Shown: piece by piece, positions 5,590-40,688 of the stretch | How positions within the stretch are numbered: the stretch's first letter is position 1 | Layout of the letters: each line of letters opens with the position of its first letter | NCBI GenBank assembly: GCA_016212825.1 | Contig: JACRDS010000013.1 | Span: forward strand, 31,677 to 95,676 | Source: Elusimicrobiota bacterium | GTDB lineage: Bacteria > Elusimicrobiota > Elusimicrobia > UBA1565 > UBA9628 | Reading direction: 5' to 3' | DNA: 64,000 bases | Position numbers and translations under genes: made by a program | The notes under the pieces: generated by a model | What the model was told of the DNA's origin: nothing | Seen by the model: the letters and a program-made list of their open reading frames with translations, nothing else | Databases searched by the model: none

Positions 5590-5626
5590 GCCGACGTAGC
5601 TCAGCGGTAGAGCAACCGCCTTGTAA
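5590..5626 (+). repeat. attL core: 37-nt 5' half of tRNA-Thr(UGU), truncated copy
   Basis: Identical base for base to 40617-40653. Identity ends exactly at the 3' end of the anticodon loop, and the following sequence cannot complete a cloverleaf. Confidence 0.85.
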
Positions 5627-19046: not shown

Positions 19047-20384
19047 TCAGGTTCCCTGCTTCTTCAGCGTGGAGTATAGCAACCTGTTCGATATCTTGAG
19101 ACTGGACAGCGTCTTGATCTTCTTTCCGTGGTTTTCCGCGAGATTCCTGCGGATGACCTCGCCGATAAAGCGGTCCACGGTCTCAGGCAGGCCGTGGTCC
19201 AGGGCATAGCGGTACCAGACATCGTCCACGCAGACCCCGTCGGCCGACGGTCTGCCTGAGTCCTGGGCCAGATGCCGCCGCACCTGCTCCAAGGTCACAT
19301 GCCCCTCGACGCCGGCGGCCAACAACTCCACGAACTTCTTCAACTCCCGGGTATTTCCCGGCCAAGCGTGTTCGAGCAGGCAAGCCTTGGCCTCCGGGGC
19401 GAAGGAAAGCCGCTTGCCGCCCCGGGTGAAGAATCTGACGAGGGGCAGGATATCGCACTTGCGCTGGTACAGCGGCTTGAGGTTCACCGTGAAGCCGTGG
19501 ATGCGCTGGAAGAAATCGAAGCGCAGCCGCCCTTGAGCGATCAGCTTCTGCAGATCCTCCAGAGTGGCGCTGATGATGCGGAACTCGGAGGACTCAGGTT
19601 GGTCGGACCCCACCGGATAGAATGAGCGCTCCTCGATGGCCTTCAAGAGCTTGGTCTGCATGTTCAGGCTCATGGACCCAATCTCGTCGAGGAACAGGGT
19701 GCCCTTGTGCGCCTGCAGGAGCTTGCCCTTGCGGCTGTCCGCGGCGCCGGTGAAGGCCCCCTTCCTGTAGCCGAAGAGCTCCGCCTCCAGCAACTCTTCG
19801 GTATAGGCGGAGCAGTTGATGGCCACGAAAGCGCCTGCCCTGCGGGAGTGCTCGTGGATGAGCTGGCCCAGGCTCGTCTTGCCGGTTCCCGACGGCCCCA
19901 GTATCAAGATCGGCAGGTCCGAAGGGGCATACTTGGCGGCCTCGACGATGCTGGCCCTGGTGGCCGGGTCCTCGGTGACGAACTGGCGGGTGAAGACGAA
20001 ATCGGCGTTGAAGCCGGTCTTGCTCTGCCGGTACTTGGCGATGACTTCGCCGACATTGGCCTCCTCGTTGCCCTTGGCGTAGAAATCCTTGCACCCGAGG
20101 GCGTAGGCCTGCGTGACCACCTCCTCGGACTCCGAGGAGGACATGACCACGGGATAGATGCCCTTCTTGGCCGCGCGTGGGATGACCTTCAGGCCCGAGC
20201 ACTCATGGTCGTCCTCGCCCAGACGCAGGTCGATGAAGCAGATGTCGAAGCCGCCGGCGTCGAGAGCGTGGGAAGCCGCAGCCAAGTCCCCGGCCAACGT
20301 CACATCATGGCTGCCCAGGTGCTTGGCCATCGCTTTTTGGGCCAGCTTGTCGTCCTCGACCACGAGAATCCTGAGCTTTTCCAT
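19047..20384 (-). CDS. sigma-54-dependent response regulator (NtrC-type bEBP)
   Basis: Receiver domain, AAA+ Walker A GPSGTGKT, GAFTGA loop, and C-terminal Fis-type HTH. Confidence 0.9.
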   Translation of the reverse strand: MEKLRILVVEDDKLAQKAMAKHLGSHDVTLAGDLAAASHALDAGGFDICFIDLRLGEDDHECSGLKVIPRAAKKGIYPVVMSSSESEEVVTQAYALGCKDFYAKGNEEANVGEVIAKYRQSKTGFNADFVFTRQFVTEDPATRASIVEAAKYAPSDLPILILGPSGTGKTSLGQLIHEHSRRAGAFVAINCSAYTEELLEAELFGYRKGAFTGAADSRKGKLLQAHKGTLFLDEIGSMSLNMQTKLLKAIEERSFYPVGSDQPESSEFRIISATLEDLQKLIAQGRLRFDFFQRIHGFTVNLKPLYQRKCDILPLVRFFTRGGKRLSFAPEAKACLLEHAWPGNTRELKKFVELLAAGVEGHVTLEQVRRHLAQDSGRPSADGVCVDDVWYRYALDHGLPETVDRFIGEVIRRNLAENHGKKIKTLSSLKISNRLLYSTLKKQGT

Positions 20385-25166: not shown

Positions 25167-25709
25167 ATGGACCAGTCGGCGACGCGGACGTGCGGAAAGC
25201 CGGACATCGGGGATGGGGCGGGAAGGAAGCCGCGCTTCCTCAAGGTGCGGTTCTACCTGCCGCACCAGGACATGGTCAGCCTGGAGGAGGAGCGCCTCAG
25301 GCTCATCAAGGAGGGCCACGACGTGAGCCTCAGCAGGCTCATCTCCGAGGCCATCCGGCATCACATCCAGACCGGCCGGCGCCAAGCGGCGGGCGGCGCG
25401 GCCCTGGCCGCGCTGCTGGCCTTCGGCCTGTTGGCGCCGGGCCTGGCCGGGGCCCAGTCCTACGGCTCGCAGATCACGCAGGCAGGCCAGGCGCTCTACT
25501 CCTGGATCCGCAGCATCGGGGCCGTCATCCTGGCCATCGGCATCTCGGGGGCGGGTTTCCAGATGGCGGTGGCGCATGACCGGGAGGCCATGAAGAAGTT
25601 CTTCTACGTCATCCTGGGTGGGCTCATCGTGTTCCTGGCCCCTTCGTTCGTCTCCCTCATCCAGGGCGTGGCCGGTTCCGCGCAGTCGCTCAACATGTCG
25701 GGGCAGTGA
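25167..25709 (+). CDS. VirB2/TrbC-type pilin with N-terminal ribbon-helix-helix-like extension
   Basis: AGGAGG SD precedes the ATG at 25167. Residues ~25-68 fit an RHH pattern (KVRFYLP...VSLSRLISEAIRHHI). These are followed by the signal sequence ALAALLAFGLLAPGLAGA and two hydrophobic helices separated by AHDREAMKK, the VirB2 topology. Confidence 0.6.
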   Translation: MDQSATRTCGKPDIGDGAGRKPRFLKVRFYLPHQDMVSLEEERLRLIKEGHDVSLSRLISEAIRHHIQTGRRQAAGGAALAALLAFGLLAPGLAGAQSYGSQITQAGQALYSWIRSIGAVILAIGISGAGFQMAVAHDREAMKKFFYVILGGLIVFLAPSFVSLIQGVAGSAQSLNMSGQ

Positions 25710-25978
25710 GCGGGATGAACACCTACAAGGCGCTCGACTACCACCTCAAGACCTTCGGCTTCTGGCCTGGGGACTTGATCGGCACGTTCCTGGGCTTCTG
25801 CGTGGTCCACTGGGTCTTCAACAGCTTCCTGCTGGACCTGGTGGTAGTCGGGCCCTTGCTTTTCGCGGCGTTCAAGACGAGGAAGCGCGCTCCCGCCTAT
25901 GTCGGGTCGCTGTGGCGCTTCGCCACCACGGCCCGGCGCTTCAGCGTGGGGCTGGGCAGGGAGGGCTGCGGCCGATGA
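25706..25978 (+). CDS. VirB3/TrbD-like small membrane protein
   Basis: About 90 aa with a two-helix hydrophobic core. Its stop overlaps the VirB4 start (ATGA). The call rests on position and size. Confidence 0.55.
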   Translation: MSGMNTYKALDYHLKTFGFWPGDLIGTFLGFCVVHWVFNSFLLDLVVVGPLLFAAFKTRKRAPAYVGSLWRFATTARRFSVGLGREGCGR

Positions 25979-28425
25979 TTCTGCCTACCTTGACGCGCGA
26001 CTTGTTCCAGACCCGGCGCGAGCCCTGCGCGCACAACCTGCTCAACCTGTGGGCTCTGGAGGACGGAGCCTTGGTCGGCGTGGACCTGCAATACACCAAG
26101 CTCTTCAGGCTCACCTGTCCGGACGCCCTCTTCGCAAGCGAAGCGGAGCTGGAGCAGCACGCGGTGGCCCTCGGCCGCCTCCTTGACGGCCTGCCCGAGA
26201 ACTGCACGGCCCAGCTCATCGTCAGGGTGCGCTGGGACGCGGGCAGCAAGATCGAGGAGTACGCCTCCTACGAGCGGCCGGAGGGGGACATGCTGCGCTT
26301 CATCGTGGGCGCGAGGGTGGATTTCCTGCGGAAACTGCCGTTCAAGCGAGTGGAGCACTTCCTGGCCCTGAGCACCTATGCGGAGAAGACGGACCTCATG
26401 AAGCTGGGCCTGCGGCCCCTGGCGCTCAAGGTCCCGGACCTGGGCCGCGAGCTGGCCGGCCTGCATGAGCGCAGGATAGAGGGGCTCAGGAAAGTCTGCG
26501 CCACCGCCTCGGCCGCATTGCGCGACGCCAAGGTCGCGGCTTTGCCGCTCTCCGAGGCTGAGTCTTTGGCCTTCCTCTACGGCCGCCTCAATCCGGCCTT
26601 GGCCCAGCACACCCCGCCTCCGCCCCTGCGCAAGTCCGCGACCTTGCGCAGCCAGCTGGCGCTCAACGCCTGGGACTGCGGCTTCGACACCTTGACCGTG
26701 GACGGCCACCACCACCGGGCGGTCAACCTGGTGGTCAGGCCGGGCGGGCTCGACGGCCGGGCCATGGCCGCCTTGGCGGACCAGGTGCCGGGAGACTTCG
26801 ACCTGGTCATCGCCGTGCACAGCCTCTCGCAGGAGAAGGCGCAGCGCGAGGTGGAGTGGAACTCCACCTCGGCCGCGGTCATTGGCGGGCTGAGCATGTT
26901 CACACGCTACCACGAGGCCGACCTCAAGTGCGAGGACGCGGACGCCCTGCTGGCCCATGTGAAGTCCTCCTGCCAGAAGCTCTACCTCATGAGCTGCCAC
27001 CTGGTCCTGCGCGACGTGGACTTGAAGGCCCTGACGCGCAGCACGGACCAGGCCATCCAGGCCCTGCGCCGGCTCGACGACGCGGTGGGGGTGGTGGACG
27101 ACATGAACCACCTGCCGCTCTTCCTGGCGTCCTTGCCCGGCCATTCCCATCTCAATCCCCGCGCGCACCTGGTCCACACCGAGGCCGCGGCGCGCTTCCT
27201 GACCATGAGTTCGGGCTGGGACGGCTGTCCATGGCCGCAGTTCATGACCCCGGGAGACGACGGCAAGGCCTTGGGCATAGACCTCTTCTCCCCGGAGCTG
27301 ACCGCCAAGCACTCCCTCATCCTGGGGGTGTCCGGTGAGGGTAAGAGCGTGCTGACCAACTCGCTGCTGACCAGCTTCTTCAGCGCGGACGAGAGCCACA
27401 ACGTCATCGTCATAGACGACGGCGGCTCCTACAGGCGTCTGTGCGGCCTCTTGGGCGGGCAGTACCTTGAGCCCACCTTGGACGGCACCTACGCCTTCAA
27501 CCCCTTCCTGGCCCGCGAGTACGCCTTCGACGAAGCCGGCCGGCTCGACGCGGACTTCCTCTCCTTCATGACCTTGCTGGTCCAGCTCATGGTGCACAAG
27601 GCCGACCTGAGCAACAACCAGAAGTCCATCATCCAAAGGTGCGTGCTGGCGGCATACGAGAGCGGCAAGAGCCGGACCCCCATTCTGGCCGACCTGCGCG
27701 AAGCCTTCAGGGCCTTCCGGGGCGACGAGGAGGATGAGGCCCTGGCCCGGAGCTTCTACAAGGATCTGGACCTCTGGACCGAGGGCACCTACGGCCGGCT
27801 GCTCAACCGGCCGGGGACCTTCGACGCGGCCTCGCGCTTCATCGTCTTCGACCTCAACAAGATGACGCAGGAGGACCTCAAGCCCGTGCTCCTGCTCATT
27901 ATCAAGAGCGTCATCCATCCCAAGCTGGCGGACAAGAGCCTGCGCAAGGTGATCGCCTTGGACGAGGTGTGGAAGTTCCTGCGCGAGAAGGCCGGGGCCG
28001 ACCTGGCGGCCGAGTGGTACAAGACCGGCCGGCGCTTCAACGCCGCGGTCATGGTGGTCACCCAGTCGGCAGAGGACCTGCTGGCCAGCAAGGCGGCGGA
28101 GGCCATCACTCATAACTCCACGGTGAAGTGGATCCTCAACCTGGGCGGGGGCTACGAGAAGCTGGCGGACCTCAAGCTCTCGGCCGAAGAGATCGAGGCG
28201 GTCAAAAGCCTGGGCAAGAACGTGGACCGCTCGCGCTTCCGCAAGGTGTTCCTGCGCTTCGGCGAGCGCAAGGCCGTGATCCGCAACCAGCTCTCACCCA
28301 CCGAGTACTGGCTCTACACCACGGACCCCAACGACGTGAACCGGGAGGCCGCCCTGCGCGAGGCCCACCCGGAGTGGGGCGCGGTGGAGCTCCTGCGCGC
28401 TCTGGCCGGAGGGGCCCGTGCTTAG
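25975..28425 (+). CDS. virB4: type IV secretion ATPase VirB4/TrbE family
   Basis: 816 aa. Walker A GVSGEGKS, Walker B VIALDEVWKF, VVTQS motif, conserved N-terminal VirB4 architecture. Confidence 0.9.
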   Translation: MILPTLTRDLFQTRREPCAHNLLNLWALEDGALVGVDLQYTKLFRLTCPDALFASEAELEQHAVALGRLLDGLPENCTAQLIVRVRWDAGSKIEEYASYERPEGDMLRFIVGARVDFLRKLPFKRVEHFLALSTYAEKTDLMKLGLRPLALKVPDLGRELAGLHERRIEGLRKVCATASAALRDAKVAALPLSEAESLAFLYGRLNPALAQHTPPPPLRKSATLRSQLALNAWDCGFDTLTVDGHHHRAVNLVVRPGGLDGRAMAALADQVPGDFDLVIAVHSLSQEKAQREVEWNSTSAAVIGGLSMFTRYHEADLKCEDADALLAHVKSSCQKLYLMSCHLVLRDVDLKALTRSTDQAIQALRRLDDAVGVVDDMNHLPLFLASLPGHSHLNPRAHLVHTEAAARFLTMSSGWDGCPWPQFMTPGDDGKALGIDLFSPELTAKHSLILGVSGEGKSVLTNSLLTSFFSADESHNVIVIDDGGSYRRLCGLLGGQYLEPTLDGTYAFNPFLAREYAFDEAGRLDADFLSFMTLLVQLMVHKADLSNNQKSIIQRCVLAAYESGKSRTPILADLREAFRAFRGDEEDEALARSFYKDLDLWTEGTYGRLLNRPGTFDAASRFIVFDLNKMTQEDLKPVLLLIIKSVIHPKLADKSLRKVIALDEVWKFLREKAGADLAAEWYKTGRRFNAAVMVVTQSAEDLLASKAAEAITHNSTVKWILNLGGGYEKLADLKLSAEEIEAVKSLGKNVDRSRFRKVFLRFGERKAVIRNQLSPTEYWLYTTDPNDVNREAALREAHPEWGAVELLRALAGGARA

Positions 28426-30268: not shown

Positions 30269-30940
30269 ATGTTCTCCGCTATCAAGGCCAGGCTGCAGGC
30301 AGCCGCGGCCGCCAAGAGGGAGCGCGGGGAGCCTCGGTTCTTCGAGGTGTTCGGCGACGCGGTCTCCGAGACCTTGTTCCTGCGCAACCTGGCCATCGTG
30401 CTGGGAGGCGCCAGCCTGGTGCTGTGCATGGCCCTCCTGCGCCTCTGCGTCCGGCCGCCCCTGGTCATCCGGGTAAGCGACCTGGGCGAGCCGATGCCAA
30501 TCACGGATGCGCGCCGCGCCGCCTATGTGACCGCCCCCGAGGTGCGCAACTTCGCGGAGCACTTCACGCGCAACCTGCTGGCCTGGGACCTCTACACCTT
30601 CGTGGACGACATAGACCGCGCCCTGGCCATGATGGCCCCGGAGGCCGCGGCCAAGATGAAGAGCCGCCTCGACGGGCTCAACACGACCTCCGCCATCCGG
30701 GAGAACTCGCTGCGCACCACCGTGGCCATCACCGAGATCGAGGTTGAGAAGGACACCCCGGATGTGGTGCGCGTCAAGGTCCGGGGAACGCGGACCGCGG
30801 CGAGCTACGAGAAAAAGGATTACCACAAGGAGACCTCGTTCGAGGATACGCTGGTGGCGAACAAGGTCGCCCGGACGGCCAAGACGCCATGGGGTTTGCT
30901 GGTCGTGGAGTGGACGGAAGCCATATACGAGGAGCGATAG
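30269..30940 (+). CDS. bitopic protein, VirB8/TrbF-like
   Basis: A single N-terminal TM helix followed by ~150 aa with an NTF2-like alpha+beta pattern. The gene order is consistent. Confidence 0.5.
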   Translation: MFSAIKARLQAAAAAKRERGEPRFFEVFGDAVSETLFLRNLAIVLGGASLVLCMALLRLCVRPPLVIRVSDLGEPMPITDARRAAYVTAPEVRNFAEHFTRNLLAWDLYTFVDDIDRALAMMAPEAAAKMKSRLDGLNTTSAIRENSLRTTVAITEIEVEKDTPDVVRVKVRGTRTAASYEKKDYHKETSFEDTLVANKVARTAKTPWGLLVVEWTEAIYEER

Positions 30941-32347
30941 ATGACCAAGAGAATCATATCGTCGATAGGGGCGGCCCTGCTGGCCGCGACGTTGGCGACC
31001 GCCTCCTACGCGGTCCAGTTGCAGACCATGTTGCAGGGCTACCTTACGGACTCGAGCGGCACGCCCTATACCGGTCCCCAGGCCGCTGAGTTCAAAGTCT
31101 ACCAAGGCGGCAGTCCGGCCGCCGCAGGCTCCGGAATCTTGGTCTACGATGAGACCGCCACCGTCCTTCCCGCGGCCAGCGGAGTCTTCAACTACATGCT
31201 GGGCAGCGGGACGCCGGTCGCGCCCGTGCTCCTGGTGGGCAGCCAGGCCATCCCCAACGCGCTGTCCACCGCCACCTTCGACACCGCTCAATCGGTCTAT
31301 GTCGAGATCGCCGTGGGTGGGACGGTCCTGCTGCCGAGACTCCAGCTCGTGGGGATGCCCTTCGCGGCCGTGGCGGGGGTGGCGGAGAGCCTCAAGCCGG
31401 GCGTCCGCTTGCCCGCGGAGAACCTCCTGCCAGGCCCGCTGACCGTGACTTCCGGGACCTTCAGCGCGGCTGGAGCCGAGCAGTACAGCCTGAGGACCTC
31501 GTCGGGCATCGAGGTCGGCGGCGGCGGCGTCAAGGCGGCTTTCTTCGCCGGCTCGTTCCACGGCGACGGCGCGGGGCTCAGCGGCGTCAGCGCGTCGTCG
31601 GTCCCGGCGGGCAGCGTGACGCCCGGCATACTCGGCGCCGGAGTGCTCCTGCCCGCAGGGAGCATCCTTCCCGGTCCCGTGGCAGTGACCTCCGGCACAT
31701 TCTCGGCGAGCGGCCCCACGCAGTTCAGCATCCAGACCTCATCCGGCATCAGCGTGGGCGGAGGGGGAGGCGTCAGCGCGGCATTCTTCAGCGGCGCATT
31801 TTACGGCAACGGCGCTGGGCTGACCGGCGTCGGCGGAGTCGCGCCCGTCGGCTCCATCACGGCCTTCGCGGGCCAGAGCGAGCCTTCCGGGTGGGTGGAA
31901 TGCGACGGCCGGTCCCTTCCCCAGAGCGGCTCTGCTGCCGCGTCCTGGGGCTCGTTCAACACGGCTGCGCTTTTCGCCGTCATCGGCACGGTCTGGGGCT
32001 CGCAGGGCGCCGGGCAGTTCAACATCCCCGACCTGCGCGGTATCTTCCCGCGCGGCTGGAACCACGGCAAGTCCTCCGGCCTGTACGATCCTGACGCGGG
32101 CTCACGCGTAAACCAGTACTCGAGCGGCGCCACGGGAGACGCCATCGGCTCCTATCAGACGGATGACTTCAGGTCGCATACACACTCGGGGTTTGCAGCC
32201 AGCGGTTTGCAGGCTCAAAATGGCGGACCCTGGGCGGGTTCCGGCGGGGTCGGAGGCTCGACCGGAGCCCCGAATTCCGGCATGGCGCACGGCAACGAGA
32301 CCCGCGCCAAGAACGCCTCGGTCATGTACATCCTGAGGGTCCAGTGA
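30941..32347 (+). CDS. secreted protein with internal tandem repeats and C-terminal phage tail-collar domain
   Basis: Signal peptide. Two ~55-aa repeats (LPGP.(T/A)VTSGTFSA.G...GGGG(V)..AFF.G.F.G(D/N)GAGL(S/T)GV). The C-terminus ITAFAGQSEPSGWVECDGRSL...ALFAVIGTVWG...FNIPDLRGIFPRG matches the tail-collar (Collar/MdpB) pattern. Confidence 0.75.
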   Translation: MTKRIISSIGAALLAATLATASYAVQLQTMLQGYLTDSSGTPYTGPQAAEFKVYQGGSPAAAGSGILVYDETATVLPAASGVFNYMLGSGTPVAPVLLVGSQAIPNALSTATFDTAQSVYVEIAVGGTVLLPRLQLVGMPFAAVAGVAESLKPGVRLPAENLLPGPLTVTSGTFSAAGAEQYSLRTSSGIEVGGGGVKAAFFAGSFHGDGAGLSGVSASSVPAGSVTPGILGAGVLLPAGSILPGPVAVTSGTFSASGPTQFSIQTSSGISVGGGGGVSAAFFSGAFYGNGAGLTGVGGVAPVGSITAFAGQSEPSGWVECDGRSLPQSGSAAASWGSFNTAALFAVIGTVWGSQGAGQFNIPDLRGIFPRGWNHGKSSGLYDPDAGSRVNQYSSGATGDAIGSYQTDDFRSHTHSGFAASGLQAQNGGPWAGSGGVGGSTGAPNSGMAHGNETRAKNASVMYILRVQ

Positions 32348-33192
32348 GCCTGATGTTCCTGCGGTCCTTCCTGCTCGGCCTGGGCATGCTGGTCTTGAAG
32401 GGCGCTGCCAATGCCAACATGTGTGCCCTTCCCCAGTTGGGCGCGGCCGGCGCTGGGACGCTCTCCGGCAGTGCCAAGTCGGCGGTGGTCACGGCTGGCC
32501 TGGCCGCGGGTGTGGCGGTCGCGCCGGGCATGGTGCTCTCCATCGGCCTGCAGTCTGTGTCGCAGGGGTCCTTCGCCTGCTTTTTGTCCACGGATGCGCC
32601 TCTCGCCGTGGCAGCCTTGCCCGGCACGTATTCGGTCCAACGCCTGGTGCCCAGCCCAGGCCGCACCATGACCCTGCAATGGAGCGAGGCTGCCGGCCTC
32701 CTGCCCGTCACCTACGAGGTATTCCTGGGGGAGTCTCCCTCCGCTCTGGCCAGCGTCGCCCGGGGCCTGGCAGCGCCGAGCCACACCCTCTCCAGCCTGG
32801 AGTTCATGCGTCCCTACTACTGGCGCGTCATGGCCTCGGACCAGTTCGGGCGGTACTCACAGAGCGGGATCTACTCCTTCTCCATAGCCCCGGCCCAGGA
32901 TCGCATGATAGCGGCGCCCAACCCGTTCCACCCGGGCAAAGTCGGCATCACCTTCATGTGGCTCATGCCCGGTCCGGGCTGGGCCGAGCTCGAGGTGTTC
33001 GCCTTGCCTGAGGCGCGTCGGGTCTTCAGGACCCGGCTGGAAGGCCTGCAGGACGGAGTCAACACCTTTCTCTACGACGGCCGGGATAGCGACGGTCGGC
33101 TGCTCTCCAACGGAATCTACACAGTCCGAATGAGGATGAAGGGAGCCAATGGCAACAAGACAGAGCTTCTCAAGATTATCGGCGTGCGTTAG
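32344..33192 (+). CDS. secreted FN3-like protein with FlgD-Ig/T9SS-type C-terminal domain
   Basis: Signal peptide, an FN3-like block (TLQWSE..PVTYEVFLGES...YYWRVMA), and a C-terminal APNPFHPG...LEVFAL...NGIYTVRM...LKIIGVR CTD pattern. Confidence 0.6.
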   Translation: MSLMFLRSFLLGLGMLVLKGAANANMCALPQLGAAGAGTLSGSAKSAVVTAGLAAGVAVAPGMVLSIGLQSVSQGSFACFLSTDAPLAVAALPGTYSVQRLVPSPGRTMTLQWSEAAGLLPVTYEVFLGESPSALASVARGLAAPSHTLSSLEFMRPYYWRVMASDQFGRYSQSGIYSFSIAPAQDRMIAAPNPFHPGKVGITFMWLMPGPGWAELEVFALPEARRVFRTRLEGLQDGVNTFLYDGRDSDGRLLSNGIYTVRMRMKGANGNKTELLKIIGVR

Positions 33193-35038
33193 CCTGCTCC
33201 TGGCAGGCCAGGCCGCGGCTTCAGGGTTTCTGGCTACAGGACCTGGAGCGCGCGCCGCAGCGCTGGGCGGGGCCTTCACGGGCCTGGCTGACGACGCCTC
33301 GGCCGTGTACTACAACCCGGCCGGCCTGGCGGGCCAGCGCGGGGCCCTGATGCTGGAGCATGTGCCTGTCAACCAAGCCGGAACCGGCCTGGCTTTCGAC
33401 GACGGCAGGCTGGACTTCGCGGGTATCCATTATCCCAGCCGCATCGGGACCTTCGGCTTCGCCGCTTTACAGTTCGCCGCAGGCCGAATCGAGGGCCGCC
33501 AGACCCTCTCGGAGGCCGCCGATCGCATCCAAGCGACGCAAACCGCGCTCTTCCTCCCTTACGCGGCCGCCTTGGGCTCCCTGTCCTTGGGCGTGACCGG
33601 CAAATCCATCATGTACTCGCTGGGCTCCTATCGGGGGACGGGCTACGGCGCGGACCTCGGGGCCAAGGCCGCCCTGTTCCAGGGCGATTCCGCGCTGGGC
33701 CGGGAGACGCGTCTGTTCGCCGGCGTGACGGTGCGCAACGCCGTTGCCCCGGCCATGCGGCTCTACCAGGACCCGGTCGCCCTGGAGCGGACCTTTGCCG
33801 CGGGCCTGGGAGCCTCGGCCCTGGTGCGGGAGAGCTATGATGCGGCCCAGAACCGGGTGTCCTACGACCGCATCGCCGCGGACCTCGATTTCGTGCGCGG
33901 GGACCAGGACACCGTGCTGAGCCCTGCCGGCGGACTTGAATACTCCTACCTGGACCGCTACGCGCTTCGCGGAGGCTTCAGCAGGCTTGGCAACATCACC
34001 ATCGGCTTCGGGCTGGGCGGACCTGACTCGGCCTTCCGCTTCGACTACGCGGCGGATGTGGGGGCGCTGGCTCCCCAGCACCGGTTCACGGTCTCCTGGG
34101 TGTTCACTCCTTCCAAGGCCAAGGTGGAGAGCGGCGTGCGCTTCTCAGCCTTCAGGCGCGCCAAGCTCGACCAGGAGCGTCTCAAGGACCGGTTCGTCAG
34201 GGAGGGACGCGCCGCGGCCGCGGCTGGTGACTACGAGCTGGCCTGGGCCGACTTCCAGAAAGCTAGGGTGCTGGACCCGGAGGACAAGATCGCGGCCGAC
34301 CTGGCGGAGTCGAGCCGGGAGGGGAGCAGGCTGGCCGGGGTCAAGGCGCGCCTCGACGAAGCGCGCCGCCAGCGGGCCGCGGGAAACGATGCAAAGGCAG
34401 TCGCCGCGGCCCTGGCCGCCCTGGTCTTCGACCCGGCGAGCCCGGAGGCCGCGGACTACGCCGCTCAACTGCGCAACGAGCTCATAAGCTCGGGCACCGC
34501 GGCGCAGTTCGAGAGCACGCGGCGCGCCATGATCGAGGAAGGGGAGCTGGCTTTCCAGGCGGCCCGCGCGGACGGCAATGTCGCGGCCATGCGCCGCGCC
34601 TTGGAGCGCGTCAAAGCCCTGGAGCCGGACGCGGACGCGGTCTGGAAGCCGCTTGAGGCGAGCCTGGACGAGGCCCGGCAGCAACTCCTGGCAAGCAGCC
34701 TGGACGATGCCCGGCGGGCCTTTGCGGCGAAGGACGCCGTAGTTGTGGCGCGCTCCGTGCGCCGCATCAGACGCCTGGATCCGGACCAGTCTGAACTGCC
34801 CGGCCTGGAGGCCAAGCTGAGGAAGGCCAGCCGCAGAGGGATGCTCTCCTTCTACGACGCGCACTATGTGCGCCAGCTTTACGATACTGCCGCGGCCGAC
34901 TATGTGCTGGGCAACTATGCCACTTCGGCCCAGACCTTGGCACTGCTGTTGCGCTGCGACGCGGCCCACCGAGACGCCAATGCCCTCGTGGACAGGCTGC
35001 GGGAAGAGGGGAGGATCGCGCAGGAGCAGGAACCCTGA
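33149..35038 (+). CDS. PorV/TraF_2-like beta-barrel fused to C-terminal TPR-like helical region
   Basis: Signal peptide, then GPGARAAALGGAFTGLADDASAVYYNPAGL, the same signature as the 18111 protein. The C-terminal ~300 aa are helical repeats. Overlaps the previous gene by 44 nt. Confidence 0.6.
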   Translation: MATRQSFSRLSACVSLLLAGQAAASGFLATGPGARAAALGGAFTGLADDASAVYYNPAGLAGQRGALMLEHVPVNQAGTGLAFDDGRLDFAGIHYPSRIGTFGFAALQFAAGRIEGRQTLSEAADRIQATQTALFLPYAAALGSLSLGVTGKSIMYSLGSYRGTGYGADLGAKAALFQGDSALGRETRLFAGVTVRNAVAPAMRLYQDPVALERTFAAGLGASALVRESYDAAQNRVSYDRIAADLDFVRGDQDTVLSPAGGLEYSYLDRYALRGGFSRLGNITIGFGLGGPDSAFRFDYAADVGALAPQHRFTVSWVFTPSKAKVESGVRFSAFRRAKLDQERLKDRFVREGRAAAAAGDYELAWADFQKARVLDPEDKIAADLAESSREGSRLAGVKARLDEARRQRAAGNDAKAVAAALAALVFDPASPEAADYAAQLRNELISSGTAAQFESTRRAMIEEGELAFQAARADGNVAAMRRALERVKALEPDADAVWKPLEASLDEARQQLLASSLDDARRAFAAKDAVVVARSVRRIRRLDPDQSELPGLEAKLRKASRRGMLSFYDAHYVRQLYDTAAADYVLGNYATSAQTLALLLRCDAAHRDANALVDRLREEGRIAQEQEP

Positions 35039-35817: not shown

Positions 35818-36206
35818 GGCGCCATCATCCTGCCGTGCGCCGGGACGGCCCCTTGGAGGGGCTTCTGCGCTGCGGCGCGAGCCCTGAGCCGGCCCGGATG
35901 CCGGAGCAGGCCGAGTTCTGGCCCGCGGCTTCCGGCCCCGCAGGGGTGTACCGGCAGGAGAAACTGCTCCTGCGCGGCGACTACCTTGACGGCCTGGAGA
36001 GGGTGAGGCGGGACTTCGGCTTGAGAAAGGCTGAGTTCAGGAAGTCCTTGACCATTGGGGAGCTGGTGGACGCGGCAGTGGGCTTCATGCTCCGCCAGGT
36101 GGACTTCAGCACCCTGGAAAGCGCGGAGGACCTGGAGCGCCACGTTGCCAGGCAGGCCCTGCGCGGGACGCAGGCGAGCCTGGGCAGGTCGTGGCAGGAG
36201 GGATGA
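35814..36206 (+). CDS. hypothetical protein
   Basis: TTG at 35814 overlaps the previous stop, with an alternative ATG at 35899. Its stop overlaps the next ATG. No domain recognised. Confidence 0.35.
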   Translation: MRRHHPAVRRDGPLEGLLRCGASPEPARMPEQAEFWPAASGPAGVYRQEKLLLRGDYLDGLERVRRDFGLRKAEFRKSLTIGELVDAAVGFMLRQVDFSTLESAEDLERHVARQALRGTQASLGRSWQEG

Positions 36207-36889
36207 TGATGAGATACGCGGCGCTGTTCCTGCTTCTTGCACGGCCTGGAGCGGCCGAGGACCTGGTGGACCCCACGGCGCTCTTCAGCCAGGCGGCGCA
36301 GGCGGCCAAGCCTGCCGCGGCCGAGCGGCCGCCGGCCTGCCCGGGCGCGGACGACTTCTTCCTGCCCACGGGCTTCACCTTCCCGGCCCTGCTTCCCGAC
36401 GCCATCTTCAGCTACAACACCGCGGCCCCGGTCAACGCCGTGCTGGAAGACGACGTGAAGTCCCGCGGCCGCGTGATCCTGCCCAGGCACACGCGCCTCA
36501 TCGGCGGCGTCAACGCCCTGCACACGCTGGACCGGGTCAACATCGCCTGGCGCCTGGCGGTACTGCCCGAGGGGTGCGAGTTCGAGTTCTCGGGCATCGC
36601 CCTCTCGGCGGACGACGGCTCGGGAGGAGTGAAAGGCAAGGTGGAGAAGCATGAGGATTCGGTCGCGGCGCAGGTGGCCCTTAAGTCCATCCTCAACGGC
36701 GCACAGCAGGCCGCGGCCATAGCAGTCCCGGTCGAAGGCGCGCTGGCCTCCGGGTTCTCCGGCGAGGCCAACCTGATGCTCGACCAGAACATAGCCAAGG
36801 TCAAGAGCCTGGAGTCCATCTACATCCGCGAAAGGACGCAGATCCGCGTCTTGGTCATGAGGAGGTTCGCCCGAGATGGCGGAAAATGA
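36203..36889 (+). CDS. VirB10/TrbI-like protein (short form)
   Basis: Signal-like N-terminus. The core VLEDDVKSRGRVILPRHTRLIGG...RVNIAWRLAVLPEG...DDGSGGVKGKVEKH follows the TrbI/VirB10 C-terminal domain pattern. It lacks the usual long Pro-rich N-terminal region. Confidence 0.6.
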   Translation: MMMRYAALFLLLARPGAAEDLVDPTALFSQAAQAAKPAAAERPPACPGADDFFLPTGFTFPALLPDAIFSYNTAAPVNAVLEDDVKSRGRVILPRHTRLIGGVNALHTLDRVNIAWRLAVLPEGCEFEFSGIALSADDGSGGVKGKVEKHEDSVAAQVALKSILNGAQQAAAIAVPVEGALASGFSGEANLMLDQNIAKVKSLESIYIRERTQIRVLVMRRFARDGGK

Positions 36890-38765
36890 ATCCTCGCCCT
36901 GCGGCTGGGAGTTCGTGCTCATGGTCGCTCTGATAGGCATGGCCTTGCAGAAGAACGCGCCGGCCATGGAGCGCCGGCTCGTGGCCTGGGAGGTGGCGCC
37001 TGTCACCGCGGCCGGGGTCGCGGCCCGCGCGGCCTATCGCCGGCTGGGGCAAGGGGCGACCCTCGGCAAGAAGGCATGCCTCAACGTCGCGGTCAACCTC
37101 TTTGCGAAGTCGGCCAATCCGCTTCGTCCTGGCGTGGGCTGGTTCGGGTTGTTGTCGCTCGGAGTCTTTCTCTGCCCCTTGGCGGCGCGCCGCATGGGCT
37201 CGTTGCGTTATTGGAACACCGAGTGGCTCGCAGCCGCGGTGCTGGTCACGGGGGCAGGCGCGTGTTTCGGGTTGGCCATGCCCGCTGCCTGGCCCTGGCC
37301 GGTGCTCTGGGTGGGCGGCGTGTGGGCCTTCGCCAACACAGGGGCCGCCCTCTTCTGCCTATGCCTGGCAATCTGGTCCTTCCATAAGGGTTCGAAGCGT
37401 CTCCACCATGGTCCGGCATTCAAACTGCCCATGATGTCGAAGCCATGCTCCGGCTTCACCGTGGGCCGCGTGGACCCGAAGATCATGCCCGGCCACTCCC
37501 GGTGGCTGGCCTCAGGTGGAGGCGACATCCAACTCCCTTTCAACCGCCTTTCCTGCGGCCTGACCGTGCTGGGAGAGAAGGGCGCCGGGAAGTCTCGGCT
37601 GCTTTTCGCCATACACGATGCCATCAGGAGGCAGCATCCGAACGTCCCCATCCTCATCCACGACCCCAAGAGCGAATGGTACCGGACCTACTACGACCCC
37701 AAGGCGGACCTGTTCTTCGCCCCGCACTTCAAGGGCACCGCGGCCTGGAGCCTGTGGCGGGATTTCAGGGAGGTGCCGGAGCTGCGCCACGAACTGCTTT
37801 CGACCTGCGTCTACGCCCACCAGGACCGGGATGATACCTTCTGGATGGACCAGGCCGTGGACCTCCTGCACCAGGTCTCGGGTTTCAAGACTCTCTCCAA
37901 AGCTGCGGATTATCTGGGAGACATCCCGCACCAGCACCCGGACGACGAGTTCCTCTTGTCGGTCTTCGGCACCGCAAAGCTCGGCTTCCTGGATCTGGCC
38001 AAGACCGAGCTGATGTCCGCCATCTCGGGGGCCCGGCCGCTGTCCATTGACGATTTCCTCCGGCAGAAGGGCCGCATCATCCTGCTCAACAACCCCTCCT
38101 GCGCATCCGAACAGAAGGGGGCTTTCAGCCTGTTTTTGTCCGCATTCCTGCTGAGGGCGCTTTCGCTGCCGGACGTGCCGGAGGGCACCCTGCGCGCTGT
38201 CGCCATCATCGACGAGGCGCTGACCTTCAACCTGCCCCCGGACGTGGAGAGGCGCATCTCGACGCTGTGCCGGTCCAAGGGCGTCTGCGTCGTGGCCGGC
38301 GCCCAGCGCCTGCCGGACCGCCAGCGCAACGAACGCGGCGAATGGCGCACCGCGGAGCACACCTTCGCCATGAAATGCGTGAACCAGGACACGCAACGCG
38401 AGCTGTCCAGGAAGGCCGGCAGCCTGCTGTTCCGACGCATGGCCCAGAGCACGACCACTTCGGCCTCGGAGCGCGCGGCCGGGCAGTCTCATACCAGGAG
38501 CGAGCAGGACCTCAGCCAGGAGGCCATCCCGCCGGAGCACTTCGGAAGGCTGTCGCCCCGCGAGTTCGTCTTGTTCCACGACCAGGGCATCGTGACCGGC
38601 AGGACCGTGGAGGTGGGGCGCGAGCAGCGCGCCGTCGCCCTGCCGCCGTACGAGCTGCGCGAGGACGTGCGCCGGATATCTATGGGGCTGATCGCCGACA
38701 TGCCTGCGCAGAAGGAGGACGAAAAAGAAGACGGAAAGGAGGATGGAGAAGATGAGCGTGATTGA
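36876..38765 (+). CDS. virD4: type IV coupling protein (VirD4/TraG/TraD family)
   Basis: N-terminal TM helices, Walker A GEKGAGKS, Walker B AIIDEALTF, acidic KEDEKEDGKEDGEDE tail. Confidence 0.85.
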   Translation: MAENESSPCGWEFVLMVALIGMALQKNAPAMERRLVAWEVAPVTAAGVAARAAYRRLGQGATLGKKACLNVAVNLFAKSANPLRPGVGWFGLLSLGVFLCPLAARRMGSLRYWNTEWLAAAVLVTGAGACFGLAMPAAWPWPVLWVGGVWAFANTGAALFCLCLAIWSFHKGSKRLHHGPAFKLPMMSKPCSGFTVGRVDPKIMPGHSRWLASGGGDIQLPFNRLSCGLTVLGEKGAGKSRLLFAIHDAIRRQHPNVPILIHDPKSEWYRTYYDPKADLFFAPHFKGTAAWSLWRDFREVPELRHELLSTCVYAHQDRDDTFWMDQAVDLLHQVSGFKTLSKAADYLGDIPHQHPDDEFLLSVFGTAKLGFLDLAKTELMSAISGARPLSIDDFLRQKGRIILLNNPSCASEQKGAFSLFLSAFLLRALSLPDVPEGTLRAVAIIDEALTFNLPPDVERRISTLCRSKGVCVVAGAQRLPDRQRNERGEWRTAEHTFAMKCVNQDTQRELSRKAGSLLFRRMAQSTTTSASERAAGQSHTRSEQDLSQEAIPPEHFGRLSPREFVLFHDQGIVTGRTVEVGREQRAVALPPYELREDVRRISMGLIADMPAQKEDEKEDGKEDGEDERD

Positions 38766-39350: not shown

Positions 39351-40493
39351 ATGGGACTGGTGAAGAAGGGCGAGAACTGGTTTATAGACTACCGCGCCAA
39401 CGGGCGGCGCATCCGGGAGAAGGTCGGCCCGAGCAGGAAGCTGGCCGAATCGGCGCTGGCCAAGCGGAGGCTGGAACTCGCGGAGAACAGGTTCCTGGAC
39501 GTCCGCAAGGCCAGCCGGGAGACCTTCCAGAGCTTCGCCGAGAAGTACCTGGAGTGGGTCCAGGGGCGCATCCGCTCGATCGCCAACGAGCGCATCTACG
39601 TGCGGCGGCTCAACGCGACCTTCGGCGGCACCTGCCTCTCGGATATAGACGTGGCCCGCGTCGAGAAGTTCATGGCGCAGAGGCTCAAGGAGCCGCGCCA
39701 GCATCCATATCGCGGGAAATCCGCATGGAAGCTCGACGCGGTCGAGCGCGAGGCGAAGATTAAGGCGTGGTACGCGGGGAACGGAAAGACGATCTCAAGG
39801 GCGCACGTGAATCGCGAGGTCTCCTGCCTCCGGCGCATCCTTAATAAGGCGGCGGACTGGAAACTGCTGCCGGCGCGTCCGCTCGGGGGGCTCAGGCTGT
39901 TCGATGAGCGAGAGTCGATACGCAAGCGCTATCTGAAGCCCGAGGAGATCCGGACCCTGCTTGCCGCCTGCGGCCCGGGCCTCAGGCAGGTCGTGACCTT
40001 CGCCCTCTACACCGGCCGCAGGTACGGCGAGATATCCGGAATGCGGTGGCAGGACGTGGACGTCGAGAACGGATACGTGTACTTCCCGAGGACCAAGAAG
40101 AAGGAGCCGGACCAGGTGGCTCTGCCGCCGCGGGCGCGTGAGGTCCTGGCGGAGTTGCGCCGCGATGCGAACGGCGATTTCGTCTTTCATAAGAAAGACG
40201 GCGGGCAGCTGCGGGTCGTGCGGTCGGGCTTCAAGAGGGCCCTGCGCAGGGCGGGAATCGCGAATTTCAGGTTCCATGATTTGCGGCATACGGCCATATC
40301 TTATATGATGATGAACGGCATCGATTTGAAGACCATCGCCGAGCTCGTGGGCCATGCGACGGCTCAAATGGTGGACAAGCGCTACGGCCATCTTTCGCCG
40401 GACCACAAGCGCGCCGCCGCGGAGGTTTACGGTTCGGCGATGGACAGGTTGTGCGGGCATGGGCAAGTCCCCTCTCAAGCCGGGGCGGCCTGA
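39351..40493 (+). CDS. int: tyrosine recombinase / integrase
   Basis: N-terminal SAM-like domain. Catalytic region with R...HDLRHTAISYMMMNG...GHAT...Y (RFHDLRH, RYGHL). Confidence 0.9.
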   Translation: MGLVKKGENWFIDYRANGRRIREKVGPSRKLAESALAKRRLELAENRFLDVRKASRETFQSFAEKYLEWVQGRIRSIANERIYVRRLNATFGGTCLSDIDVARVEKFMAQRLKEPRQHPYRGKSAWKLDAVEREAKIKAWYAGNGKTISRAHVNREVSCLRRILNKAADWKLLPARPLGGLRLFDERESIRKRYLKPEEIRTLLAACGPGLRQVVTFALYTGRRYGEISGMRWQDVDVENGYVYFPRTKKKEPDQVALPPRAREVLAELRRDANGDFVFHKKDGGQLRVVRSGFKRALRRAGIANFRFHDLRHTAISYMMMNGIDLKTIAELVGHATAQMVDKRYGHLSPDHKRAAAEVYGSAMDRLCGHGQVPSQAGAA

Positions 40494-40616: not shown

Positions 40617-40653
40617 GCCGACGTAGCTCAGCGGTAGAGCAACCGCCTTGTAA
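40617..40653 (+). repeat. attR core (37 bp, 5' half of the intact tRNA-Thr)
   Basis: Identical to 5590-5626. Confidence 0.85.
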
Positions 40654-40688
40654 GCGGTAGGTCGCCGGTTCGATCCCGGCCGTCGGCT
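40617..40688 (+). tRNA. tRNA-Thr (anticodon UGU)
   Basis: Hand-folded cloverleaf: acceptor GCCGACG/CGUCGGC, D arm GCUC-AGCGGUA-GAGC, anticodon stem ACCGC/GCGGU with loop CUUGUAA, T arm GCCGG-UUCGAUC-CCGGC. CCA is not encoded. Confidence 0.9.

Follow-up and report, generated by a model that had tools for sequence, protein, structure and literature searches.

The window analyzed here is a 64,000-nt stretch from the genome of an uncultured bacterium of the class Elusimicrobia, phylum Elusimicrobiota (GenBank assembly GCA_016212825.1, contig JACRDS010000013.1, positions 31,677 to 95,676 of the forward strand). It contains, within a type IV secretion system (T4SS) operon, a gene for a 468-aa protein, P0001, that carries a phage-type Collar domain at its C-terminus. 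The gene, the integrated element in which it lies and the likely function of its product are the subject of this work.

A fiber gene within the T4SS operon of an integrated element

The P0001 open reading frame (ORF) starts with ATG, ends with TGA and is intact. Both of its junctions are tight. The TAG of the upstream gene (30938-30940) touches the fiber ATG with zero intergenic bases, a Shine-Dalgarno sequence, GAGGAG, is located 6 nt 5' of that ATG, and the GTG start of the downstream gene, p282, shares 4 nt with the fiber TGA. A first-pass annotation of the window had placed this ORF between a VirB8-like gene and an overlapped next gene, and the arrangement is as it described. The name given to the upstream gene holds less firmly. 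A profile of that gene matched the R388 TrwG/VirB8 structure 7o41_D (E 0.0023), and its orthologue at locus L105 contains PF04335 VirB8; the five other listed matches were also VirB8/TrwG but were not significant (E 0.05-1.1). The gene is therefore called VirB8-like here as a weakly supported assignment.

Two 37-nt direct repeats, the right-hand one formed by the start of a tRNA-Thr gene, flank the operon (Table 1), and so the region is an integrated element of ~35 kb with its integrase at the right end. VirB4, a coupling protein, VirB10/TrbI and a pilin (whose orthologues carry PF04956 TrbC) are present in one cluster, as is characteristic of a conjugative T4SS, and an integrase beside a tRNA with flanking direct repeats is characteristic of an integrative conjugative element (ICE). 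VirB7 and VirB9 were not recognizable. The nine neighbors of the fiber gene gave no PHROGs match, and Pfam scans of the surrounding ORFs returned T4SS, integrase and cargo genes only, with no capsid, portal or terminase domain, as the first-pass annotation had maintained.

P0001 itself has a modular organization. Its N-terminus, MTKRIISSIGAALLAATLATASYA followed by VQ, combines basic residues with a hydrophobic core and has small residues at positions -3 and -1; judged by eye, it reads as a Sec signal and not as a prepilin leader, and Ala24, the last residue before the predicted cleavage site, is invariant in 14 homologues. The secreted nature that had been predicted for the protein is consistent with these features. 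A β-rich domain of ~130 residues (the N-domain) follows the signal peptide, and between it and the Collar domain are two tandem Gly-rich repeats. The repeats had been annotated as ~55 aa long; two copies are indeed present, residues ~153-229 and ~233-307 having 48 identities in 75 aligned columns (64%), but each measures ~77 aa. They are visible in the protein only, and a search for direct repeats in the DNA of the fiber gene (seed 9, minimum length 30) found none. A Pfam scan of P0001 returned the Collar domain and a weak chlorovirus repeat, with no other match, and P0001 is the sole Collar match in the 3.56-Mb genome (85.7% complete).

A gp12-type head with a hypervariable tip

The tail-collar assignment was confirmed by a Pfam search, in which PF07484 Collar matched residues 304-370 over the full model (1-57 of 57) with E 2.1e-15; its score of 56.8 bits exceeds the gathering cut-off of 24 by a wide margin. 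The relationship extends well beyond this domain. When a profile built from 14 homologues was aligned to PDB sequences, its residues ~296-468 aligned across the entire receptor-binding domain of the T4 short tail fiber gp12 (1ocy, E 6.6e-9, residues 8-196; 1pdi, E 2.3e-8), and it also matched another short tail fiber (9cuy, E 4.1e-10). In this alignment the invariant His413 and His415 superpose on the gp12 H-K-H motif, and the C-terminal GNETRPxN..YI(I/L)(K/R)V strand has a counterpart in gp12. The HxH motif of T4 gp12 is a zinc site. An AF2 model of the C-terminal domain (pLDDT 74.1) had three fold matches in the PDB at E <= 0.001, and all three are T4 gp12 (5iv5, 1pdi and 1ocy; probability 1.00, TM 0.48-0.49); the tip loop is modeled with pLDDT <50. 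PHROGs matches of P0001 were likewise limited to tail-fiber families. We conclude that the C-terminal domain of P0001 is, by homology, a T4 gp12-type receptor-binding head.

P0001 as a whole is not a gp12 short tail fiber. The two proteins (for gp12, PDB 1OCY, 1H6W/5LYE, 1PDI and 5IV5) have in common ~170 C-terminal residues with the Collar domain, the HxH site and the C-terminal strand, whereas their N-terminal two thirds are unrelated: the baseplate-binding part of gp12 is replaced in P0001 by a signal peptide followed by a presumed anchor domain for the cell surface. The loop after the HxH motif is about half the length of that in gp12, and the P0001 gene is located in a T4SS operon with no virion genes around it, whereas gp12 belongs to a virion module. 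A Collar domain is also found in stand-alone proteins such as MdpB ('microcystin-dependent protein') and Rhizobium RhiB, and database annotations of P0001 homologues carry the MdpB name. A tblastn search of PLSDB plasmids with P0001 gave no record covering >=80% of the query and returned short RhiB/MdpB-like Collar proteins only. These matches are confined to the C-terminal third (33-35% coverage, ~30% identity); the majority come from rhizobia and are labeled 'tail fiber protein', with one annotated RhiB. The single plasmid context inspected among them contained no T4SS.

Variation within the head is concentrated in one segment. Mean pairwise identity is 0.67 in the collar framework and 0.78 in the C-terminal strand but 0.25 in the tip loop (residues 416-450), and the homologue P0003, which is 77-90% identical to P0001 in each other mature segment, is 26% identical in the tip. 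At the DNA level, identity between the window and locus L108 is mostly 72-93% along the VirB8-like and fiber genes. The exception is 32136-32300, where indels occur and identity is 51-65%; immediately beyond, it is 90% again, so that the divergent cassette is sharply bounded. Tip variation produced by a diversity-generating retroelement was set aside, since Pfam scans of the element found no reverse transcriptase and the tip differences consist of indels and substitutions. The shaft varies in another way: homologues contain from 1 to 5 or more repeats, and locus L001 carries one additional 225-nt repeat relative to the window, at window position 31396. Together, the variation in tip and shaft is the pattern that would be expected of a receptor-specificity determinant mounted on an adjustable stalk.

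Table 1. Features of the fiber gene, its operon and the surrounding element. Positions refer to the window unless preceded by a locus name.
Feature	Position	Strand	Basis or remark
Left-hand 37-nt direct repeat, copy of the tRNA-Thr 5' part	5590..5626	+	
VirB4/TraC-like ATPase of the T4SS	25618..28425	+	Pfam, NCBIfam
VirB8-like gene directly upstream of the fiber gene	30269..30940	+	Profile match to TrwG/VirB8 (weakly supported)
Fiber gene P0001, 468 aa	30941..32347	+	Predicted signal peptide, MAT-like N-domain, two shaft repeats, gp12-type Collar/receptor-binding domain
Predicted Sec-type signal peptide, residues 1-24, cleavage after SYA	30941..31012	+	Read from sequence; Ala24 invariant in 14 homologues
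N-domain, residues 25-152, β-rich; distant relative of the Bdellovibrio MAT N-domain	31013..31396	+	NF053851 match and AF2 model
Two Gly-rich shaft repeats, residues 153-229 and 230-~305	31397..31837	+	64% identity between copies
Collar domain and conserved framework to invariant H413-T-H415	31838..32185	+	PF07484; HMM alignment to 1ocy, 1pdi, 9cuy
Hypervariable tip loop, residues 416-450	32186..32290	+	Low pairwise identity; counterpart of the segment behind HxH in T4 gp12
Conserved C-terminal strand GNETRAKNASVMYILRVQ and stop codon	32291..32347	+	Aligns with the gp12 C-terminus
p282, small protein ending in a FlgD_ig (T9SS-CTD-like) domain	32344..33192	+	Always after the fiber gene
p629, N-terminal PorV/PorQ-family barrel and ~300-aa extension	33149..35038	+	Third of the fiber-p282-barrel trio
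TrbI/VirB10-like protein	36191..36889	+	Pfam
Type IV coupling protein (T4CP)	36876..38765	+	Pfam
Tyrosine integrase of the element	39351..40493	+	Pfam
tRNA-Thr(TGT); first 37 nt are the right-hand direct repeat	40617..40688 (repeat 40617-40653)	+	
TylF-type methyltransferase directly after the fiber gene	L003:5179-5877; L010:2967-3692		88% identical to each other
Acyl_transf_3 gene directly after the fiber gene	L004:11261-12376; L005:12184-13368		

Distribution of the fiber gene and its linkage to PorV-like barrels

Genomic context was recovered for 12 distinct Collar-fiber homologues, and 11 of these are located in T4SS clusters. The first-pass annotation had named two outcomes that would refute its reading, a domain that does not score as tail-collar and a consistent lack of such a gene in homologous T4SS loci; both were checked, and the reading survives both. 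The fiber gene lies between the VirB8-like gene and p282 in 10 distinct loci (the window, L001, L003, L004, L006, L008, L010, L105, L106 and L108), within the gene order pilin, VirB3-like, VirB4, p284, VirB6-like, VirB8-like, fiber, an optional enzyme gene, p282, the PorV-like p629, p259, TrbI and T4CP. The fibers in these ten loci are 43-86% identical to that of the window. In the eleventh cluster, L107, the fiber-p282-p629 trio is positioned between the T4CP and pilin genes, which indicates that the three genes move as a unit. The remaining homologue, P0026 on the metagenomic contig L005, comes after the genes for a TrwC relaxase and a giant, 2,289-aa RHS/Tc-like protein (L005:1472-8341), and no T4SS genes lie downstream of it. 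P0026 continues for ~300 aa past its Collar head.

Divergence of the fiber framework follows that of the T4SS. At L001, L003, L004, L006 and L008, respectively, identity to the window is 81, 58, 65, 57 and 55% for the VirB8-like neighbor, 90, 65, 70, 60 and 62% for the fiber N-domain, and 88, 67, 68, 70 and 69% for the Collar domain, but 94, 16, 23, 20 and 20% for the tip. These per-segment values indicate that the framework has been co-inherited with the T4SS and that the tip has not. Four of the 12 loci, the window not among them, have an enzyme gene inserted right behind the fiber gene (Table 1). The two Acyl_transf_3 genes are barely related, which suggests independent insertions. Enzymes of the TylF-type and Acyl_transf_3 families typically modify sugars. 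By analogy with seroconverting phages, and from gene position alone, one might speculate that these enzymes alter the donor's own surface glycan, which would point to a glycan receptor.

A pattern-based contig scan with the VirB8-like alignment gave a single locus, whereas a hidden Markov model (HMM) search with the VirB8-like profile revealed a wider family, with this T4SS type present in 26 of 401 Elusimicrobiota genomes. An N-domain fiber is found in the T4SS loci of only four of these genomes; its occurrence is limited to certain clades within this type of T4SS. Where the upstream region has been sequenced, fiber-less loci (L065-L070, L043-L062) have an ORF of ~800-1580 codons before the barrel-pilin pair; the long ORF matches fn3, Ig-like, CarboxypepD_reg/SdrD_B or β-propeller-repeat domains and has a p282-like FlgD_ig/CTD-like end. 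The p282 of fiber-bearing loci is always short (272-298 aa). The two arrangements may represent alternative solutions for one slot, which would be filled either by a long surface protein anchored through its CTD or by a short CTD protein alongside a separate phage-type fiber. Two other T4SS lineages also encode N-domain fibers, with different tips. The one in genome G148 (L071:1249-2250, minus strand) has the same N-domain and a tip rich in (A)HxH with a PSGW motif, and is followed by p282, barrel and pilin genes. The other, in G005 (L039:2-1171, minus strand), is located after TrbI, has the same N-domain and W-x-x-I/L-K...P-x-x-F-A-D-G repeats, and is cut by the contig end.

The N-domain links P0001 to a second group of fibers. 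NF053851 (Bdello_MAT_N) matched P0001 over model positions 3-149 of 162 at 27.9 bits (E 1.7e-6), short of its cut-off of 60, and matched all 14 homologues tested at E <= 0.01 (best 4.9e-7). By profile comparison, therefore, the N-domain is a distant relative of the MAT N-domain, outside the family as delimited by the NCBI threshold. The AF2 model of the N-domain is β-rich (pLDDT 68-85). MAT fibers of Bdellovibrio bacteriovorus are surface-displayed adhesins consisting of a signal peptide, a ~130-aa β-rich domain, a fiber and an interchangeable tip (Caulton et al. 2024, PMC10769870). Their N-domain has no PDB homologue and probably binds a surface element, although the partner was not identified (PMC10769870). 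In agreement with the published lack of a PDB homologue, a fold search of the PDB with the full-length AF2 model of P0001 gave nothing significant and generic β-sandwich matches only. P0001 has the same layout as the MAT fibers, from the signal peptide and ~130-aa β-rich N-domain through a shaft to a variable C-terminal tip, and some of its N-domain relatives bear S74 chaperone tips like the S74-type MATs. The differences are that P0001 scores below the curated cut-off and comes from a different phylum, and that MAT fibers function in prey recognition without a T4SS link whereas P0001 is encoded in a T4SS operon.

The N-domain is widespread. A profile search among 1.84 billion representative proteins found 14,819 protein clusters at E <= 0.001, with tips that include the S74 chaperone and Collar; related N-domain/Collar proteins reach 1,875 aa. 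Within Elusimicrobiota the domain is present in 206 of 401 genomes, at up to 10 copies per genome and in ORFs of ~140 to 4,698 codons. N-domain genes of the P0001 type often pair genomically with genes for PorV-like barrels. In the window the barrel is p629, which NF033709 scores at 86.4 bits, below its cut-off of 90. A first estimate from coordinates in five genomes found a PorV/PorQ-family barrel gene within ~3 kb of 14 of 15 N-domain genes. In a stricter test, with one locus per genome and an HMM made from the 17 barrels of the source genome (E < 1e-5), 13 of 26 loci had a barrel gene no more than 3.4 kb away, and some of the negative loci are at contig ends. The 11 control regions taken from these contigs, 179 kb in total, contained one barrel gene, and the 13-35 barrel genes per genome imply a chance rate of pairing of ~6%. 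The association is thus strong but not universal. A PorV-like barrel may be the surface partner of the MAT-type fiber superfamily, and the linkage provides a concrete candidate for the surface retention of this very large family.

Proposed function and alternatives

The translational coupling of the fiber gene, its divergence in step with the T4SS, the hypervariable tip and the variable shaft length are best explained if P0001 is a surface fiber for recipient recognition or mating-pair stabilization, the role that the first-pass annotation had suggested; we consider this reading somewhat probable. Exported by the Sec system, as its signal peptide suggests, the fiber would be fixed on the donor surface by its N-domain, probably via the p629 barrel and p282, to judge from the gene linkage, and we infer that display occurs through the PorV-like barrel. 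The Gly-rich repeats would form a shaft whose length differs among elements, as reflected in their copy-number variation. At its end, the head, with a conserved HxH metal site and a ~35-residue hypervariable loop, would bind a recipient surface structure, probably a glycan, and such binding would stabilize mating pairs and skew the choice of recipients that acquire the element. On this reading the fiber, most likely trimeric, is part of the transfer machinery of an ICE. The adhesin reading can be refined in three respects. The fiber is clade-restricted; its gene is inherited in company with those of a PorV-like barrel and of a small CTD protein; and, since the N-domain is a general surface-fiber anchor of the phylum, display on the donor cell surface is likelier than display at a pilus tip.

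Few donor-side devices with a comparable role are known. A 2025 review lists TraN and PilV only (PMC12282955). Both are encoded in transfer regions, and both recognize LPS or outer-membrane proteins of the recipient through variable parts specific to the receptor (PMC12282955; PMC9246713). P0001 could be a functional counterpart of TraN of F-like plasmids or PilV of IncI plasmids, built from phage-fiber and MAT-fiber parts: the proposed role, the location of the gene in a transfer region and the presence of variable parts are the same. The proteins have no sequence or architectural kinship, however: TraN is an outer-membrane protein rich in Cys, and PilV is a type IV minor pilin whose variants arise through a shufflon. 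A Pfam scan of P0001 found neither a TraN domain nor a PilV match. A full-text literature search gave no report of a tail-fiber or Collar protein in a T4SS or conjugation system.

Several observations weigh against a dedicated role in transfer. The N-domain occurs in hundreds of chromosomal fibers without a T4SS link, so the fiber type is that of a general adhesin, and the copy on the ICE could serve the host cell instead of transfer. Absence from 22 of the 26 genomes makes the fiber dispensable to the T4SS machine. No TrwC relaxase was found in the element or in the 85.7%-complete genome (other relaxase families were not searched genome-wide), and no relaxase of any kind was found among the Pfam-scanned ORFs of the element, so that conjugative function rests on relatives, L004 and L005, that do have TrwC. 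The tip is Gly/Ser-rich, and relaxed constraint could explain part of its variability. The full-length AF2 monomer model of P0001 is also poor (pLDDT 47.9), as an obligate trimer would lead one to expect, although this does not count as evidence for a trimer.

The likeliest alternative is that P0001 is a general surface adhesin carried as cargo, attaching the host to particles, partner cells or prey without a specific part in DNA transfer. Besides the wide and mainly chromosomal occurrence of the N-domain family, the source genome encodes two more N-domain proteins outside the element (G000:C40:2345-3878 and G000:C18:2711-3076), and the L005 homologue lies outside a T4SS cluster. We nevertheless regard this alternative as unlikely, given the fixed place of the gene in the transfer operon with coupled start and stop, the presence of all but one of the homologues with known context in T4SS clusters, the divergence of the fiber in step with T4SS genes, and the location of the cargo genes of the element elsewhere, at ~6-24 kb. 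If the T4SS instead delivered proteins or killed neighbors, in place of or besides transferring DNA, the fiber would be its targeting device. The lack of a recognized relaxase and the giant RHS/Tc-like neighbor at L005 are compatible with that use, which is quite improbable in view of the coupling protein, integrase and tRNA-flanking repeats that define an ICE, the TrwC relaxase beside the same operon in the close relative L004, and the fact that no effector/immunity pairs were seen.

A position between VirB8-like and VirB10-like genes is the usual site of core-complex genes and would suit a structural protein without adhesive function, built into the outer-membrane portion of this unusual T4SS. 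Such a component, however, would hardly be absent from most loci of this T4SS type, lie outside that slot in L107 and G148, vary in length, or combine homology to a receptor-binding head with a hypervariable tip, and we judge this role very improbable. An exclusion or self-recognition factor, binding cells that already carry the element or masking a donor receptor to prevent redundant mating, would account for the genes of surface-glycan-modifying type beside the fiber in four loci by linking receptor modification with the fiber. Those genes are optional and absent from the window, known exclusion proteins are small membrane proteins or lipoproteins that act in the recipient, and a long fiber with a phage-type head is better suited to capture than to blocking; the probability of this role is accordingly very low. 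That the gene is a prophage tail-fiber remnant that landed in the operon by chance has in its favor the phage-like C-terminal domain, but the ORF is intact and the N-terminal two thirds are not phage-like. Prophage debris was rejected on the conserved synteny of the ten loci, with their related fibers, and the absence of phage genes nearby, which leave it a negligible probability.

With recipient recognition retained as the preferred role, a broader model can be put forward tentatively, as possible but rather doubtful. In this model, some conjugative elements would set their recipient range as phages set host range, by a tip-swappable, phage-derived fiber that a dedicated PorV-like barrel holds on the donor with no type IX secretion system involved; the same pairing would constitute the MAT-type anchor, and the adjacent glycan-modifying genes would shield donors from self-recognition, as in seroconverting phages. 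Should P0001 prove to be a receptor-binding fiber kept stably in its operon, with its hypervariable tip, variable length and optional glycan-modifying neighbors, modular exchange of tips could shape recipient choice in conjugation much as it shapes phage host range, and the host range of an element might be readable from its sequence.

Regulatory genes were also noted near these operons. The window contains a sigma-54 activator gene at 19047-20384 on the minus strand. In four related loci (L006:902-3534, L008:915-3516, L105:1-2121 and L106:1-2258), such an activator gene lies ahead of the T4SS operon in divergent orientation, together with a gene for a Sigma54_DBD protein, that is, an RpoN-like gene of their own.

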